Assembly (NCBI GenBank): GCA_964575495.1
Contig: CAZNRV010000207.1
Span: forward strand, 1-27,232
Direction of reading: 5' to 3'
Origin: an uncultured bacterium
Lineage (GTDB): Bacteria > Hydrothermota > Tepidihabitantia > Tepidihabitantales > Tepidihabitantaceae
DNA: 27,232 nucleotides
In this document: positions 16,222 to 22,123 of the stretch, one piece after another
How the letters are laid out: each line of letters begins with the position of its first letter
Numbering within the stretch: the first letter of the stretch is position 1
Notes under the pieces: model-generated
Told to the model about the DNA's origin: nothing
What the model saw: the letters and a program-made list of their open reading frames with translations, nothing else
Databases searched by the model: none
Position numbers and translations under genes: made by a program

Positions 16222-17502
16222 TTATGTGGTAATCTTCAAGGCGCGGCGCGGGCAGTTCCAGACACATTCAAAACAGCGGATGCATTCAGCCTGATTCGGG
16301 TCCTCAAAAGGTTCGATGTCGGTTGGGCAGACCTGGCGGCAGACACCGCAGCGGTTGCAGGTTTCAGTGTTGAGTTCCAGGTGCATAAGGCTGATTTTGT
16401 TGAATAAAAGGTAAATTGCGCCAATCGGGCAGATAAGGCGACAGAACGGGCGTTTAATGGTAATCGCAGCCCAGATGACAAAAAGGAGAATTCCGACCTT
16501 GAGATAAAAAAGCCAGCCCACAAGTGCGCGCAAGCCCTGAACCGGGTCCCAGAGAACCAAAGGGATTCCTGCCTCAAGTGTTCCCTGGGGGCAAAGTTTG
16601 CAGAACCACGGTTCAGCAGTAAGATAAGGCAGAGCCACGGCAACAAGTATTAGAAAGGCAAATTTCAACTTAGTTGCGGGCAAGAATACCTTCAGCACCT
16701 TGTCCAGCAATAAGACCAAAAGTGCTGTCATGAGCGTAAACGCCAGTCCAAGTTCGGCGCCGGCGAATGGACCGACCTGAAACGGCTTGCCGAAAAGGCT
16801 CAGCGCAAACCCGAGTGGCGCCGCAATTAATATCACCGGCACACCACCCACAAGACTGAAAAGGGTCATACCTATTATCCCAGTGGCTAACCCCAAGTTA
16901 ATCTCATACTTAAAGGCAATTAGAATTCCAAGCCCGATGCCCACAAGCATTCCACCAAGCCACCATCTTTCCGGTAATCTTAACTTTCCTTTAATAACGC
17001 TGTAAAGTAAAACCAGCATAAAAGGCAGCCAGGCAAAAATGAGCGCTTTCCAGATGGCAACTTGGACAAAAATAGCAAGCAGGACAACCGCAACCAAACC
17101 CACAGCGCCGACAACCACAAACGAAATCCAGCGTTTTGCCCTTGCCCGCGGTTCCAATTTAATTTTGTAGAGCAAATCCTGCCACAACCCGAAAGGGCAA
17201 ATCCAGGCGCAGGCAGTTCTGCCAACAAATGCGCCGATAAGGACAAAAAACCCAATTATTACCCAGGGGACATTCTGCCACCAGGCTGTGCCTTTCAGCC
17301 CAATAATCTGCTGGAGGGAACCGAGCGGGCAGGCAAAAACGGAAAGTGGTCCGCCGTAGCAGTTAAGAACCGGCTCAGGGATGGATTTGAGAAAGCCCGA
17401 ATATATGATTTTATTCTGAATATAGGCGAGGATGTAGCCGTTTAAGATAACGGTAGCGATAATCTGACCGAGCCGATAGGGTGCAATTCTTCTTTTAGGC
17501 AT
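16222..17502 (-). CDS. membrane 4Fe-4S binding protein (NapH/MauN-like polyferredoxin)
   Basis: Multiple TM helices; CX3CP motifs (CAWICP, FCKLCP, CRLICP), LNCYGGP...ACPLG, and two C-terminal CxxCxxCxxxCP motifs (CNRCGVCRQVCP, CIRCFECVWNCP). Confidence 0.9.
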   Translation of the reverse strand: MPKRRIAPYRLGQIIATVILNGYILAYIQNKIIYSGFLKSIPEPVLNCYGGPLSVFACPLGSLQQIIGLKGTAWWQNVPWVIIGFFVLIGAFVGRTACAWICPFGLWQDLLYKIKLEPRARAKRWISFVVVGAVGLVAVVLLAIFVQVAIWKALIFAWLPFMLVLLYSVIKGKLRLPERWWLGGMLVGIGLGILIAFKYEINLGLATGIIGMTLFSLVGGVPVILIAAPLGFALSLFGKPFQVGPFAGAELGLAFTLMTALLVLLLDKVLKVFLPATKLKFAFLILVAVALPYLTAEPWFCKLCPQGTLEAGIPLVLWDPVQGLRALVGWLFYLKVGILLFVIWAAITIKRPFCRLICPIGAIYLLFNKISLMHLELNTETCNRCGVCRQVCPTDIEPFEDPNQAECIRCFECVWNCPRRALKITT

Positions 17503-17509
17503 ATTTTAA

Positions 17510-17526
17510 GGGTCTACACGAGACCC
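17510..17526 (-). promoter_or_regulatory. SECIS-like hairpin for the small selenoprotein
   Basis: After the TGA: 11 nt (CTTTCCTGTAT), stem GGGTCT, loop CGTGT, stem AGACCC; G then U in the apical loop; loop starts 17 nt after the TGA. Confidence 0.75.
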
Positions 17527-17651
17527 ATACAGGAAAGTCATATCTGGGAGGCAAAACCGTGAATAACTGTCAGCATCCCCAGTTTGATGCCGAGAACAAT
17601 CGCTGCCGCACCAAGAACAGCAAAAGTAATGAGGATAAGCCGGCGCTTCAT
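17514..17651 (-). CDS. 45-aa membrane-anchored probable selenoprotein with a C-terminal UxxC motif (CD1871A-like); absent from the ORF track
   Basis: Manual translation gives MKRRLILITFAVLGAAAIVLGIKLGMLTVIHGFASQI-U(TGA 17540-17538)-LSCMGLV-TAG. The U-x-x-C-x-G ending matches the C-x-x-C-x-G ending of small CXXC proteins found upstream of 4Fe-4S membrane proteins (recalled). A SECIS-like hairpin follows the TGA. Confidence 0.85.
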
Positions 17652-17659
17652 AAAGTAAA

Positions 17660-17737
17660 TCTCAATCTCAAAGCACTAAACCCTAAACAAACCATAAGCC
17701 ACGAACTAAAAACCAATTCGGTCATTTCGAGCTTGTT
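17660..17737. repeat. degenerate heptamer-like run plus a GTCATTTCGAGC...GAGAAATC REP-like half element
   Basis: GTCATTTCGAGCTTGTTGAGAAATCC at about 17711-17736 has the same architecture as the GTCATTGCGAG...GCAATC element near 13700; adjacent low-complexity CTAAA/CAAA repeats. Confidence 0.5.
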
Positions 17738-17775
17738 GAGAAATCCCTCTCCTGCCCATTAGAATTTTTCATATT

Positions 17776-19227
17776 TTATATCCTGCTGATTAACTGCACC
17801 TTCACCCCGCGGAAAGGCGCCTCATACCGGCAGACTCCACCGGAACAGGTATAGCCTCCTTTTTCTGCGCCAATCCTTATCCTGAGCACATTGCGCTCAT
17901 TGATGTTGTAAACCGTCTCAAAGACAGGCCATGACTTTTGATTATCATACCGTTTCAGCGAATCCTTGTCCACGCCCTGCCAGCCAATAGTAAAAAGCCA
18001 CTTCTCGCCATATCCATAACTCAAGCTCACAGCCGGCTCGTGATATAACCAGCGCGCGCCTTTGGCAGTGTCGCTCGGTCTTTCATCAACCCAACCCAAC
18101 TCCGCCTCCAGCCCAAAGGTATGCTCGCCAAAAAGATAGTTAATCAGGAGAGCTGGGCGGTCGGTTATCCGCCCTTTTGTTCCCAATTCAATATTTCTCT
18201 GCAGCATATGATTAAACTTGCCTTCAAAAGTCCAGTTAGTGTTAGGCGAATACCGCGCCTTTGCCTCTGCTTCCAGCACGCCGGTGCTCGTGTCATCGTG
18301 GACAAAAAGCCTGCCCAGGTCCACACCTAAATAAAGTCCGGTTAAAGGCATCCCTGAGACCTCTAAACCAAATCCTCTTTCATCCACCCCCCGATTAACT
18401 GCCACCCCGGACTTAATCGGTGTGGGTTGGTCATTGTAATGGTAAATTCCCTCAGGAAAGCCCAGACGGGTGTAATCAACAAACTGACCGACAAGAGAAA
18501 CTCCGGCAAGGCTGGCGCTCGTATTTATTACATAACCAAAACCATTTTCTCTGCCGCCAATCCCCGGTCTTGTTCCTAACCGCCAGCACACCTCGCCCCC
18601 AATGCTCGCCAAACCGAAATCAAGCCTGACATCACCACCAAAAAGTTCGGTAAATGCCTTGGCGCTGGGGTCGACATCGCGATTAATCCGCACATATCTT
18701 GAGCCAAAACCTAAAAACCTCACTGGTCTTGAACTCAAATTAGCGCCTAAGATCTGGTCAGTGCTATCCAGTTCATTCATTAACTTATAACTGTTCTCCT
18801 GAAAAAACACATCCCTTAGCCTTCCGCCCAGAAGGGTGATTTCGCTGCGCAAAGGCAGCCTCAGAATCCCTCTCACACCGTGCAGGCTTTTGTAATGCCG
18901 GAAGTCGTCATCAGAATAGGTCGCGAGCGCGAGACCCTGACCAAAGGTGGCAAAAAATCTTCCGAGCCTGATTTCCAGCTCCTTCAGGTTATAGCCGATT
19001 GAATAATCAAACAGCCGCAATGGTCTACGCACCTCAGGGCTGTGCTTTGACGGTTCAAACAAAAGAATCCCTAATTCTGCATCAAAATCACCATAACGGG
19101 CTGTCAAATCAAGCTTATCCTCAAGATGGGTTGCCCACTGCTCTTGGTATGCCCAGAATTCTGCCCGGTTGCTACCCTGAATGGTAAAATTGGTAGCAAA
19201 GATGGTGGTGAGAAGGATAAAGGTCAC
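17776..19227 (-). CDS. probable outer-membrane beta-barrel protein with a C-terminal Cys pair (DUF6029-like)
   Basis: Alternating amphipathic beta-strand pattern throughout; RLGRFFATFGQGLAL; C-terminal GAEKGGYTCSGGVCRYEAPFRGV resembling the GG..C.GGVCR motif of DUF6029 (recalled). Confidence 0.7.
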   Translation of the reverse strand: MTFILLTTIFATNFTIQGSNRAEFWAYQEQWATHLEDKLDLTARYGDFDAELGILLFEPSKHSPEVRRPLRLFDYSIGYNLKELEIRLGRFFATFGQGLALATYSDDDFRHYKSLHGVRGILRLPLRSEITLLGGRLRDVFFQENSYKLMNELDSTDQILGANLSSRPVRFLGFGSRYVRINRDVDPSAKAFTELFGGDVRLDFGLASIGGEVCWRLGTRPGIGGRENGFGYVINTSASLAGVSLVGQFVDYTRLGFPEGIYHYNDQPTPIKSGVAVNRGVDERGFGLEVSGMPLTGLYLGVDLGRLFVHDDTSTGVLEAEAKARYSPNTNWTFEGKFNHMLQRNIELGTKGRITDRPALLINYLFGEHTFGLEAELGWVDERPSDTAKGARWLYHEPAVSLSYGYGEKWLFTIGWQGVDKDSLKRYDNQKSWPVFETVYNINERNVLRIRIGAEKGGYTCSGGVCRYEAPFRGVKVQLISRI

Positions 19228-19243
19228 CAGACCGCCTACCTAT

Positions 19244-19810
19244 TCATTTCTGTTCGTGCGGCCCCTCACCAGTTGGTTCCTCTTCTTTTTTCTCCTCGGG
19301 GAGCCATTTGCCCATCTCTTCGGCAATTCTTTTCTCATCGCCCTTCTTATAGCCGATATGGGTATAGACAATCTCGCCATCCATATTGATGAGATAGGCG
19401 GTGGGTTTAATGATGATATTGTATGCCTTTTTTACCTTCTGTTCCTGATCAAGTAGCACGATATAGGGCCATTTCTTGGCAGCAACAAACGCTTTAACCC
19501 TCGGTTCATCTGAAGGCTTATCAACCGAAAGCGCGACAATTTTCAACCCTCGCTCCTTTAGTGAATCATAAACTGGCACCAGCGCGTCCAGCTCTGCGAT
19601 GCAGTTCACGCAGGGTAAATCCCAGCATTCCATATAAACTGGGCCTGTCTTCAAAAGCTCCCAAAGGGTTACCTCATTTCCTTCGAGATCGGTCAGGGTG
19701 AAATCCGGCGCCTTTTCATACTCGGTCTCCTTACTTTCCGCCTCACTCCCGCCGTTTAGACCGAGAAGCAGACCTAAAACCACCAAAAACCTCCAACTGA
19801 ACCTAATCAT
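19244..19810 (-). CDS. TlpA-family thiol-disulfide oxidoreductase, exported
   Basis: Signal peptide; APDFTLTDLEG, WDLPCVNC (CxxC), IVALSVD, PTAYLINMDG; start overlaps the upstream stop (ATGA). Confidence 0.9.
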   Translation of the reverse strand: MIRFSWRFLVVLGLLLGLNGGSEAESKETEYEKAPDFTLTDLEGNEVTLWELLKTGPVYMECWDLPCVNCIAELDALVPVYDSLKERGLKIVALSVDKPSDEPRVKAFVAAKKWPYIVLLDQEQKVKKAYNIIIKPTAYLINMDGEIVYTHIGYKKGDEKRIAEEMGKWLPEEKKEEEPTGEGPHEQK

Positions 19811-20604
19811 CTTGTCTCCTCTCCTTCAACTCTCCGCTTAGTCACAGATTGAAGCACCGCCTTTGTGCTGAGGTCCTGAACCGAAACCGCCACTCCAACG
19901 TGTGTCTTCTGATAATCGCGGACATTAGTTACCAGCAGTGTATCAAAATCCTCTCCGAACTTCAGGTTTATTGGAATCCCGAAACTGTCGCCAATCACCT
20001 GACGGACCGTCATTGGTGCATAGGTTGTGTCGCCGATGAGTAACGAATAATATGGGACGCTGTCCTCATAGACAATTGCCACCAGCCTCAGGCTTGTCAT
20101 GGTGTCAATCACTGAATCGGTCGGTATAATTCTGACCCGGAGCCGCAGCGTCGCAGAGTCGATGCTGGTGTGAATGCTATCCAGTTCCATCTCAAGGAAT
20201 GTCTTGCGCGAGCGTGCGGCGTCAATCATATCCCGATATACCGGATAGAATGAGTCTGGAATCGTAACTTGGGGTGAACGCAATGAGCCGTTAAAGAAAG
20301 CTAAGGGCGCCTCCAGTCCGACACCATACCATTCATTCCTGGCGTTGCCTGCCGGCGAAGAAAGTTGCGGATGGGTTTCGGCCGAGTAATAAATCACAAA
20401 AGCCATAGAATCGCCATAGAGGTATTCCAGACTGTCAAGCGCCCGCGCCGCGGACGCACAGTAGTCTCATTCATCCAGTGGTGTTGAAAAGAGTTCAACC
20501 AGAACCACACGGTTTGCCTCACGGACAATCTGCGGTGCATCCGAACAAGAAATCGTTATCAGCACCAAAGCGATGGCGGCAAAAAGCAACAAGCGGTACT
20601 CCAT
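19807..20604 (-). CDS. Omp28-like thioredoxin-fold lipoprotein with selenocysteine (UxxC), 265 aa; joins track ORFs 20467..20766 and 19807..20406
   Basis: The two ORFs are in the same frame, separated by a single TGA at 20469-20467. Read-through gives MEYRLLLFAAIALVLITISC (lipobox)...RVVLVELFSTPLDE-U-DYCASAARALDSL...YGVGLEAPLAFFNG...RLVAIVYED...VAVSVQD...VLQS, typical of Omp28-like Trx folds. Confidence 0.85.
20431..20462 (-). promoter_or_regulatory. SECIS-like hairpin in the Omp28-like gene
   Basis: After the TGA: GACT, ACTGT, GCGTCCGC, loop GGC, GCGGGCGC, TTG bulge, ACAGT. This gives 5-bp and 8-bp stems with a G-first loop starting 17 nt after the TGA. Confidence 0.75.
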
Positions 20605-20611
20605 AAGATAA

Positions 20612-20639
20612 ATTTTAGTTACTGTTAGCTTACAGTCAA
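20612..20639 (-). promoter_or_regulatory. promoter of the selenoprotein cluster, probably leaderless, with an internal palindrome
   Basis: Minus strand: TTGACT (20639-20634), 16-nt spacer, TAAAAT (20617-20612), 7 nt, then ATG at 20604. ACTGTTAGCTTACAGT (20621-20636) is a 14/16 palindrome. Confidence 0.65.
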
Positions 20640-20713
20640 GGAAAACCCCTGACTCGGCACCAAGAATAAAGATATTACTTGACAGAGACTGGAAATGGGT
20701 CAATCTATTATTG

Positions 20714-22123
20714 ATGGCAAAAATGAGAATAAACCTGTTGCTGTCTGTTATTGTGTTACTCGGCACTGCGGCTGAATGGGACAGTATTATCAGGTTGACC
20801 GATAATAACCGCGCCCAGGTTTTGGGTTTAAGTTATCAGAAAAGCATAGCGGTTGGACCAGAGGGAAATGTCTGGGTGTTCTGGCAGGACCGGCGCTCAA
20901 CACCGTATCAAATCTGGATGCGTAAGTTTGACCGGGTGCGCCAGATGTGGCTGCCCGAATCGCAGTTGACCCGTGTGCCCGCACAGACTAATCCGCCTTC
21001 TGCTGACTGCGATCAGAGCGGTAATGTCCATCTCTTTTGGCATATTGAAGACGGTCAGTATGCGGGAATATGGTACAAAAAATATGAGAATGGTCAGGGA
21101 AGATGGCTAGACGATACTCTCCTGGTGTCCGCGATTCTGCCCTATCTGCGCAAGAATCCGGTGGTTGCAACCCAGCGCGGTGGTGATGCGGTTCATATCG
21201 TGTGGTTTGGCAATCCCGATACCGGCGGGAATTATCAGGTTTTTCACAGGGAGTGGCGCCCCGGTTCAGGCTGGCTGCCGTATGAACAGGTGAATACTGC
21301 CATCTGCCCGCATGAGGCCGTCTCGATCGCAGCTGACAATAATAATAACTTGTGCGTTGTTTGGTTGGGTCAGGATTTCGGCAATCAGCGCAATCAGGTT
21401 TTCTGTCGGCGCAGGATTAATAATATCTGGCAGAATGTGGAACTGGTCTCTGAATTTCCCAGCGATTTGGCTCAGTATTCTCCCTGCGTTGCTGCCAGCA
21501 TAAACAGCAACTGGCATATCGTCTGGCTGGGGAATGTTTCCGGTCAATTTTATCAGCAGGTTTACCATCGCTTACGTACCCCTGAAGGCTGGAGTCAAAT
21601 CTTTACGGTCAGCCGCGGTGTAAACTATCAGCAGGGAACACCATCAGCAGATTGTCGTGAGGAGAATGAATGCCACATTGTCTGGCGCGGCAGGACCCAA
21701 GCCTCACCTGACAGATATCAATTGTGCTACACTTTCAGGGATAAATATGGTAACTGGAGTCTGCCTGAACAGTTAACAGAAATTGACACCAGTAATGTTG
21801 ACCGGCCGGCAATCGTCTGCGACTCCGGTTATGGTCTGCATATTGTTTATCAGGATGAATCTTCAGGCAACCTTGATGTCTATTATCTTTACGGCTGGAT
21901 AGAGGGGATTGGCATTTCCGAAGATATAACTGACAGGAGTGACCGCACTCTCGTTATCCTGAGGTCATTCCCGGAGTTTGCAGAGGGCGCTAAGATTTAC
22001 AATCCTCTCGGACAGCTAACTGGTAAAAGCGCTGCTGGGCTGGGCAGTGGCGTTTATCTGATTGAAACTAACAGCGGCACCAGGCGGCTTGAAAAGATAA
22101 TCGTTTTGAGAAAACCCCGATAG
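20714..22123 (+). CDS. secreted beta-propeller protein with a T9SS/Por-like C-terminal sorting domain
   Basis: Signal peptide; repeated blades (VWVFWQD, VHLFWH, VHIVWF, LCVVWL, WHIVWL, CHIVWR, LHIVYQD); C-terminal KIYNPLGQ...LGSGVYLI...KIIVLR. Confidence 0.7.
   Translation: MAKMRINLLLSVIVLLGTAAEWDSIIRLTDNNRAQVLGLSYQKSIAVGPEGNVWVFWQDRRSTPYQIWMRKFDRVRQMWLPESQLTRVPAQTNPPSADCDQSGNVHLFWHIEDGQYAGIWYKKYENGQGRWLDDTLLVSAILPYLRKNPVVATQRGGDAVHIVWFGNPDTGGNYQVFHREWRPGSGWLPYEQVNTAICPHEAVSIAADNNNNLCVVWLGQDFGNQRNQVFCRRRINNIWQNVELVSEFPSDLAQYSPCVAASINSNWHIVWLGNVSGQFYQQVYHRLRTPEGWSQIFTVSRGVNYQQGTPSADCREENECHIVWRGRTQASPDRYQLCYTFRDKYGNWSLPEQLTEIDTSNVDRPAIVCDSGYGLHIVYQDESSGNLDVYYLYGWIEGIGISEDITDRSDRTLVILRSFPEFAEGAKIYNPLGQLTGKSAAGLGSGVYLIETNSGTRRLEKIIVLRKPR

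Follow-up and report, generated by a model that had tools for sequence, protein, structure and literature searches.

A predicted lipid-anchored UxxC selenoprotein of the Omp28-related thioredoxin-fold superfamily in the WOR-3 phylum

Does a TGA codon inside a thioredoxin-like sequence separate two genes, or is it read through as selenocysteine (Sec) in a single gene, and what would the product of such a gene do? The question is raised by contig CAZNRV010000207.1 of an uncultured bacterium (GenBank assembly GCA_964575495.1; GTDB lineage Bacteria; Hydrothermota; Tepidihabitantia; Tepidihabitantales; Tepidihabitantaceae), on whose minus strand two open reading frames (ORFs) stand in the same frame with one TGA between them; the whole stretch analyzed, 27,232 nucleotides, is called the window below. 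In sum, the sequence evidence identifies 20604..19807 (minus strand) as one gene, here called the Sec lipoprotein gene, whose UGA codon 46 is predicted to be decoded as selenocysteine with the assistance of a selenocysteine insertion sequence (SECIS) hairpin. We put at about 0.88 the probability that its product is truly an exported selenoprotein with a UxxC motif that belongs to the Omp28-related thioredoxin-fold superfamily.

One gene across a TGA codon

The features that define the gene are the following.

20604..19807, minus strand: read-through selenoprotein coding sequence, 265 codons and a terminal TGA, with the TGA of codon 46 read through
20604..20545, minus strand: signal peptide and lipobox, MEYRLLLFAAIALVLITIS-C (...VLITIS-C), with Cys20 (20547-20545) as the predicted lipidation site
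20469-20467, minus strand: UGA codon 46, first position of U-D-Y-C, predicted to be read as selenocysteine
20460-20458, minus strand: Cys49 of the UxxC motif, putative resolving cysteine, invariant in orthologs and distant homologs; the structural model puts it into the first turn of helix 47-66

The gene starts with ATG at 20604-20602 (minus strand). The lipobox was called by pattern match, and it is followed after Cys20 by the residues S-D-A-P; most orthologs have the same context, L-x-[SG]-C and then S-[DE]-A-P, and none of C20, S21, A23 and P24 varies among 21 orthologs. We infer that the protein is exported and lipid-anchored at Cys20. The first-pass annotation had gone further and called it an outer-membrane protein, a label that finds no support, the lipobox pattern being all there is. 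The motif order is VLVELFSTPLDE, then U46, then D-Y-C: the reading frame before the UGA ends ...NRVVLVELFSTPLDE, and behind it the frame continues with D-Y-C-A-S-A-A-R-A-L for 216 further codons to the terminal TGA at 19809-19807, which overlaps the ATG of the next gene in a shared ATGA. A mechanical ORF list divides the gene at the TGA into 20467..20766 and 19807..20406. The TGA had been described as occupying the first Cys position of a CxxC that follows VLVELF; it does take that Cys position, but six residues (STPLDE) lie between VLVELF and U46.

To judge the TGA we compared the DNA of 9 genome loci and 21 metagenome loci, with protein identities of 37-100%. Codon 46 is TGA in all 30 orthologous loci and never a Cys codon, in the context U-x-[Y/F]-C, and upstream of it all 30 retain the frame ...ANR-[IV]-V-L-x-E-[LIVM]-F... 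and a lipobox. The same codon is TGA in 21 of the 21 aligned orthologs. Furthermore, when 251 WOR-3 genomes were sampled, every match of at least 240 bits (24/24) held exactly one TGA, at codon 46, and the next score tier (100-160 bits) consisted mostly of Cys paralogs without an in-frame stop.

Public protein records tell the same story from the other side. Searching with the protein brought up 34 clusters, every one of them from candidate division WOR-3 or from unnamed metagenome-assembled genomes (MAGs), and all 34 are annotated as fragments of 163-210 amino acids that lack the N-terminal part, most of them beginning soon after the TGA; where a name is given at all, it is "hypothetical protein". 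As a result, the databases lack both the active site and the export signal. Among 1.84 billion representative proteins, a profile search found 1435 relatives, of which the top 12 are all N-terminally truncated; the first full-length relatives carry R-C-x-Y-C-P at the U46 site, and most full-length homologs place Cys, not Trp or Gly, in the U46 column. The comparison with orthologs and homologs that the first-pass annotation had called for thus came out as TGA in the orthologs and Cys in the more distant homologs. A dedicated hidden Markov model (HMM) together with a SECIS model would correct the annotation in roughly 10% of the sampled WOR-3 genomes (24/251).

Both sides of the TGA are under purifying selection. 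The pairwise ratio of nonsynonymous to synonymous substitution rates (dN/dS) comes to 0.12 on the upstream side of the TGA (codons 20-45) and to 0.21 on the downstream side (codons 67-265), with the reservation that dS is above 1 and saturated and the ratios are rough; both halves are nonetheless clearly constrained, and the 3' half shows none of the relaxed selection that would have spoken for decay. The ATG at codon 67, from which the ORF caller starts the 3' half, is CTT, CTG, GTT or ATT in 11 of 21 orthologs, so that no separate start for the 3' half is conserved. The initial view of the two ORFs as one gene split at the TGA is borne out by these three results, namely the conserved TGA, the low dN/dS on both sides and the unconserved M67.

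The same results bear on the proposal that the locus is two separate genes, or a pseudogene, in which a 45-residue lipopeptide would end at the TGA and a 199-residue protein would start from ATG67. Every public annotation calls the genes split in just this way. Yet at dS values above 1 a pseudogene would not retain an identical stop at one codon, as all 30 loci do, and selection is purifying to either side of it; ATG67 is unconserved; the split would cut the thioredoxin fold and the CxxC motif in two; and a covarying hairpin lies at SECIS distance from the TGA (see below). We consider two genes or a pseudogene very improbable, and continue with a single gene that is read through.

Hairpin, protein fold and selenocysteine machinery

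Directly behind the UGA the RNA can form a hairpin of two parts.

20457..20439, minus strand: SECIS-type hairpin, inner 8-bp stem, G+C-rich, with the 3-nt loop GGC, beginning 9 nt after the UGA
20467..20429, minus strand: outer 5-bp helix of the two-part hairpin, which folds in the window sequence and is unconserved

The usual bacterial SECIS has a stem shortly after the UGA and a small loop that starts with G, and the hairpin found here matches this layout. The inner 8-bp stem is 95.7% paired over 23 distinct orthologs, with compensatory changes in 4 of its 8 pairs (C-G to U-A; U-G to G-U, A-U or C-G; C-G to A-U or G-C); none of 500 shuffles equaled this pairing and covariation, and controls slid along the alignment dropped to 22-62% paired. 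The loop reads GGC, GGU, GUU or GGA in the orthologs and starts with G, the conserved apical-loop residue of SECIS elements that was stressed by Zhang and Gladyshev (2008; PMC2398784). Consistent with an RNA structure that constrains silent sites, dS is 0.93 for codons 47-66 (20466-20400, minus strand), compared to 1.4-1.8 in the rest of the gene. The 13-bp two-part hairpin of the first-pass annotation does fold in the window sequence, as 5 + 8 bp with -25 kcal/mol, but only the inner 8 bp are conserved: the outer helix is 72% paired, and one of its pairs is open in 21 of the 23 sequences. Since it is unconserved, the outer helix is probably not required, and hairpin function could probably dispense with it.

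An AlphaFold2 (AF2) model was built from 21 read-through orthologs (mean predicted local distance difference test [pLDDT] 82.8; predicted template modeling [pTM] score 0.80) and has two domains.

20523..20212, minus strand: thioredoxin-like domain, about residues 28-131, with a strand at 34-40, a short loop and U46 directly before the long helix 47-66 (AF2)
20205..19831, minus strand: C-terminal Omp28-type beta-sandwich, about residues 134-258, strands 137-256, pLDDT ~90 (AF2)

In this model U46-D-Y-C49 is placed at the N terminus of the first helix, after a beta-strand, and a structural check of the kind suggested at the outset, namely that U and C should be adjacent at the start of a helix, is answered by U46 just before helix 47-66 and C49 in its first turn. 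The best solved Foldseek match to the whole model is HBP35 of Porphyromonas gingivalis (5y1a; query TM 0.71 over 250 columns, 13% identity). The C-terminal half resembles the Omp28 domain structure 2r2c_A (target TM 0.68, E = 2.5e-4), and matching AlphaFold DB clusters bear the names "Omp28-related outer membrane protein", "Thioredoxin domain-containing protein" and DUF1223. When PDB sequences were searched with a profile, only thioredoxins came up, at a nonsignificant E of ~0.5, with U46 falling on their first Cys.

Selenocysteine machinery is encoded in the same genome: selA (570 bits), selB (382 bits) and selD all score above their cut-offs, and a selD with an in-frame TGA adjoins selB (contig C237:10598-13639). 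A second selD is stop-free, of the Cys type, and divided over two contig ends (C265:3565-4263 and C180:1-498). tRNA-Sec scores above the Rfam cut-off in 18 of 21 genomes (20 relatives and the MAG itself), including 6 of 6 from the same genus.

Several results weigh against this reading of the gene. Taken as a single sequence, the hairpin is no better than its shuffles (z = -1.3), and no Rfam family matches it, a scan of 17400-20700 at E <= 10 giving chance snoRNA matches only. tRNA-Sec was not found in the MAG by RF01852 and ARAGORN, which gave tRNA-Ser only; this says little, because ARAGORN recovers only 24 tRNAs from the 286 contigs, with the tRNAs for Cys, Phe, Tyr and Asn among those missing. 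Of the five AF2 models a single one is confident (82.8); the other four have a pLDDT of 61-67. Pfam gives nothing above threshold on the read-through protein and only a sub-threshold match to Glutaredoxin. Finally, the two closest curated models both stay below threshold: NF045500, "Omp28-related selenoprotein", scores 22.1 bits against a cut-off of 200 (E = 8.5e-5, residues 30-255), and NF033782, "Omp28 family lipoprotein", reaches 17.6 of the 150 bits required.

The fragmented MAG of 286 contigs and its unassembled tRNA-Sec are also what could be said for a TGA that is an assembly or sequencing error, or that stands for another amino acid in a changed genetic code. An error is contradicted by independent sequence: Logan contigs of two hot-spring metagenome runs from different samples and studies (2017 and 2019) cover codon 46 without a difference, and the JGI (Joint Genome Institute) contig L028, with 100% protein identity, has the TGA and its 72 surrounding bases letter for letter, as all orthologs have the TGA. 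Since the TGA is conserved in all loci and present in independent contigs, we regard an assembly error or a pseudogene as excluded on the sequence evidence. As for a changed code, TGA is the ordinary stop of the Sec lipoprotein gene and of about half its orthologs, exactly where others use TAA or TAG, and the codon is therefore not reassigned; homologs show Cys at the site, not Trp or Gly; and selA, selB and selD are present. An error or a recoded TGA is, in our estimate, scarcely credible. The initial proposal of an extracytoplasmic selenoprotein that bears a lipobox and carries U at the first Cys of a thioredoxin-type CxxC, a prediction still, has thus gained in strength from the Cys homologs, the hairpin and the 30 of 30 TGA codons, and the checks that it had named on sequencing errors and on Sec machinery both turned out in its favor, the latter with selA, selB and selD in the genome and with tRNA-Sec in relatives rather than in the MAG itself.

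Family placement, relatives and novelty

How is the protein related to Omp28? PF11551 (Omp28) gives no match to it even at E <= 1. A whole-genome search with the NF045500 model fails to pick up the gene, and among 121 WOR-3 genomes searched with that model none reaches the cut-off. However, two paralogs from the same genome, which align with it along the full length or along the thioredoxin half, match PF11551 with 32 and 60.6 bits (cut-off 34.9). From the fold match and these paralogs we conclude that the Omp28 link is real but remote: the Sec lipoprotein is a remote relative in the Omp28-related thioredoxin-fold superfamily, and by score it is in no curated family. The term "Omp28-like" used at first therefore stands for the fold and the paralogs, and not for membership by PF11551, NF033782 or NF045500; likewise, the suggested alignment of the read-through protein to Omp28-related HMMs succeeded for NF045500 over residues 30-255, but with all scores below the cut-offs.

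One of the paralogs is informative about the Sec residue. Encoded at C265:2139-2897, this lipoprotein of 253 amino acids shows 27% identity along the full length (E = 9e-17) and reads ...VLVEFFTWQR-C-VY-C-P..., the first Cys of its CxxC aligning with U46. It shares the architecture and lipobox context (C-S-E-A-P) of the Sec lipoprotein, but has Cys in place of Sec and sits in a different gene cluster.

Sec forms are not confined to this clade. Many Omp28-like genes in the WOR-3 phylum hold one TGA, and Sec forms of the lipoprotein are widespread there and probably old. Further subfamilies from other WOR-3 families and classes (L064-L071) have a TGA at the first CxxC position and a similar G+C-rich hairpin.

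The first-pass annotation had hinted that Sec in Omp28-like proteins might be new. It is not: selenocysteine in Omp28-related proteins of the thioredoxin fold was already on record in 2008, when GOS_C was described from ocean metagenomes, with 74 Sec sequences and 312 Cys homologs, as having a Trx-like fold, its function then being unknown (PMC2398784), and NF045500 is catalogued as "Hypothetical protein GOS_C", motif UxxC, in a 2026 review of prokaryotic selenoproteomes (PMC13188914). The Sec lipoprotein resembles NF045500/GOS_C in having UxxC in a thioredoxin-like fold with Sec in place of the first Cys of a CxxC, abundant Cys homologs and a SECIS hairpin directly after the UGA; the NF045500 model also aligns across nearly its whole length (residues 30-255). 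It differs in that the model has 377 positions compared to 265 amino acids, in a two-residue insertion before U (STPLDE-U) and in belonging to a lipobox-bearing WOR-3 clade of hot springs, in which it is the first gene of its own conserved five-gene cluster. Because its score is far below the NF045500 cut-off, we treat it as a new subfamily and not as a member of NF045500.

Two other known systems are close enough for comparison. HBP35 (5y1a), whose fold matches both domains, belongs to the cell envelope, carries a thioredoxin-like motif and is reported to have thioredoxin activity (PMC2907840); in contrast to the Sec lipoprotein it has Cys and not Sec, and it is a cargo of type IX secretion with a C-terminal sorting domain and not a lipoprotein. 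The Omp28 family (PF11551; NF033782; 2r2c) shares the beta-sandwich, and both are lipoproteins, predicted as such in the case of the Sec protein, although the Sec lipoprotein itself is without a PF11551 match and far under the NF033782 cut-off.

What is new is thus modest, and the gain over the knowledge of 2008 is incremental: a distinct WOR-3 clade with Sec in every sampled case, missed by the curated models and heading an operon with a second small selenoprotein. Within our sample the hot-spring clade always has Sec and never Cys, and its gene shares a conserved envelope operon with that tiny second selenoprotein. Both points suggest that WOR-3, an uncultured phylum, employs selenium in extracytoplasmic redox chemistry. 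Literature searches on Omp28 with selenoprotein or selenocysteine, and on WOR-3 with selenocysteine, found nothing relevant.

A conserved five-gene cluster and a possible function

Downstream of the Sec lipoprotein gene lie four further genes on the same strand, in the order TlpA/ResA-like protein, DUF6029 barrel, 45-amino-acid selenopeptide and NapH-like protein.

19810..19244, minus strand: secreted thiol-disulfide oxidoreductase, TlpA/ResA-like, with the motif CVNC, 74 bits with Pfam AhpC-TSA and 62 bits with Pfam Redoxin, adjoining the Sec gene in 9 of 9 loci
19227..17776, minus strand: putative outer-membrane barrel, DUF6029 (Pfam PF19494, 64.5 bits), with a C-terminal CSGGVC
17651..17514, minus strand: 45-amino-acid membrane-anchored selenopeptide, MKRR..., with one hydrophobic helix, ending in Q-I-U-L-S-C-M-G-L-V
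17502..16222, minus strand: polytopic membrane protein, NapH-like (52.8 bits with NCBIfam napH, under the cut-off), with 4Fe-4S motifs and matches to Pfam Fer4_5 and Fer4

This order is kept in all nine genome loci, as far as the flanks extend. Across the loci the TlpA-like protein is the most conserved of the five genes (65-84% identity); the DUF6029 barrel has 59-75% and the Sec lipoprotein 52-74%. The TlpA-like neighbor scores 82 bits with the NCBIfam ResA subfamily, below the cut-off. Its active-site region reads M-E-C-W-D-L-P-C-V-N-C, with three Cys compared to the usual W-C-x-P-C. The DUF6029 barrel is syntenic in 9 of 9 loci, its gene being cut by the end of the locus in L022 and L025, and a literature search on DUF6029 had a paper on polysaccharide export as its sole match. 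The tail of the barrel reads ...G-G-Y-T-C-S-G-G-V-C-R-Y-E-A-P-F....

Closer inspection of the 45-amino-acid peptide revealed, in 7 of 7 loci, a TGA and, spanning the stop codon, a covarying hairpin (GGUCU-CGUGU-AGACC type), and on this evidence the UxxC peptide is predicted to be the second selenoprotein of the cluster. It matches the NCBIfam CD1871A CXXC family weakly (16 bits, cut-off 32). The NapH-like gene is the last conserved one of the cluster and is syntenic in all seven loci that extend that far.

From its fold and motif, the Sec lipoprotein would be a cell-envelope oxidoreductase for selenols or thiols and disulfides, in which U46 would act as the attacking nucleophile and C49 as the resolving residue. 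It might exchange reducing equivalents with the translationally coupled TlpA/ResA-like protein, and the five genes might then form an envelope redox cluster. This electron exchange is tentative. The TlpA partnership is proposed from gene order, and CcdA/DsbD is too patchy in relatives to support an argument about the electron source; these points count against the functional part of our reading. We had considered the NapH-like protein as a substitute for CcdA/DsbD and dropped the idea: DsbD_TM is absent from the MAG and present in 2 of 5 close relatives.

A second selD and a cluster of Cys-form paralogs bear on the alternatives. On contig C265 (L051:228-4263) a peptide that ends in ICLSCMGLV (CLSC), the Cys-form paralog of the 45-amino-acid selenopeptide, is accompanied by an Omp28-like protein of 580 amino acids, the lipoprotein of 253 amino acids, a protein of 240 amino acids and the second selD. 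Besides the MAG itself, this Cys-form cluster beside selD is kept in three genomes (L061, L062 and L063) of three genera, one of them the genus of the MAG, and its predicted envelope thioredoxin-like proteins are in that sense consistently linked to selD.

The main functional rival, owing to this linkage of the paralogous cluster and to the resemblance to HBP35, is a real UxxC selenoprotein that handles a chalcogen, metal or heme ligand at the envelope, be it in uptake or detoxification of selenium and sulfur or in heme binding as in HBP35. HBP35, the closest solved structure, is reported to bind hemin in addition to having thioredoxin activity (PMC2907840); the Cys-form cluster is directly beside a second selD in the MAG and in the three other genomes; and two selenoproteins are found in the Sec cluster. 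However, the adjacency to selD belongs to the paralog and not to the Sec lipoprotein gene, and the ATGA coupling to a TlpA/ResA-like protein, together with the synteny in nine of nine loci, favors protein thiol chemistry. Ligand handling is therefore, in our view, rather unlikely, and we keep to a thiol-disulfide or selenol-disulfide oxidoreductase as the function to be expected of the Sec lipoprotein.

A wider proposal, which we regard as doubtful, is that the five genes encode a relay of selenols and thiols across the envelope, in which electrons would pass from the membrane Fe-S protein via the two selenoproteins to the outer membrane or the cell surface. Because the Cys-form paralogous cluster adjoins selD, such a relay may serve the acquisition of selenium or other chalcogens rather than protein folding.

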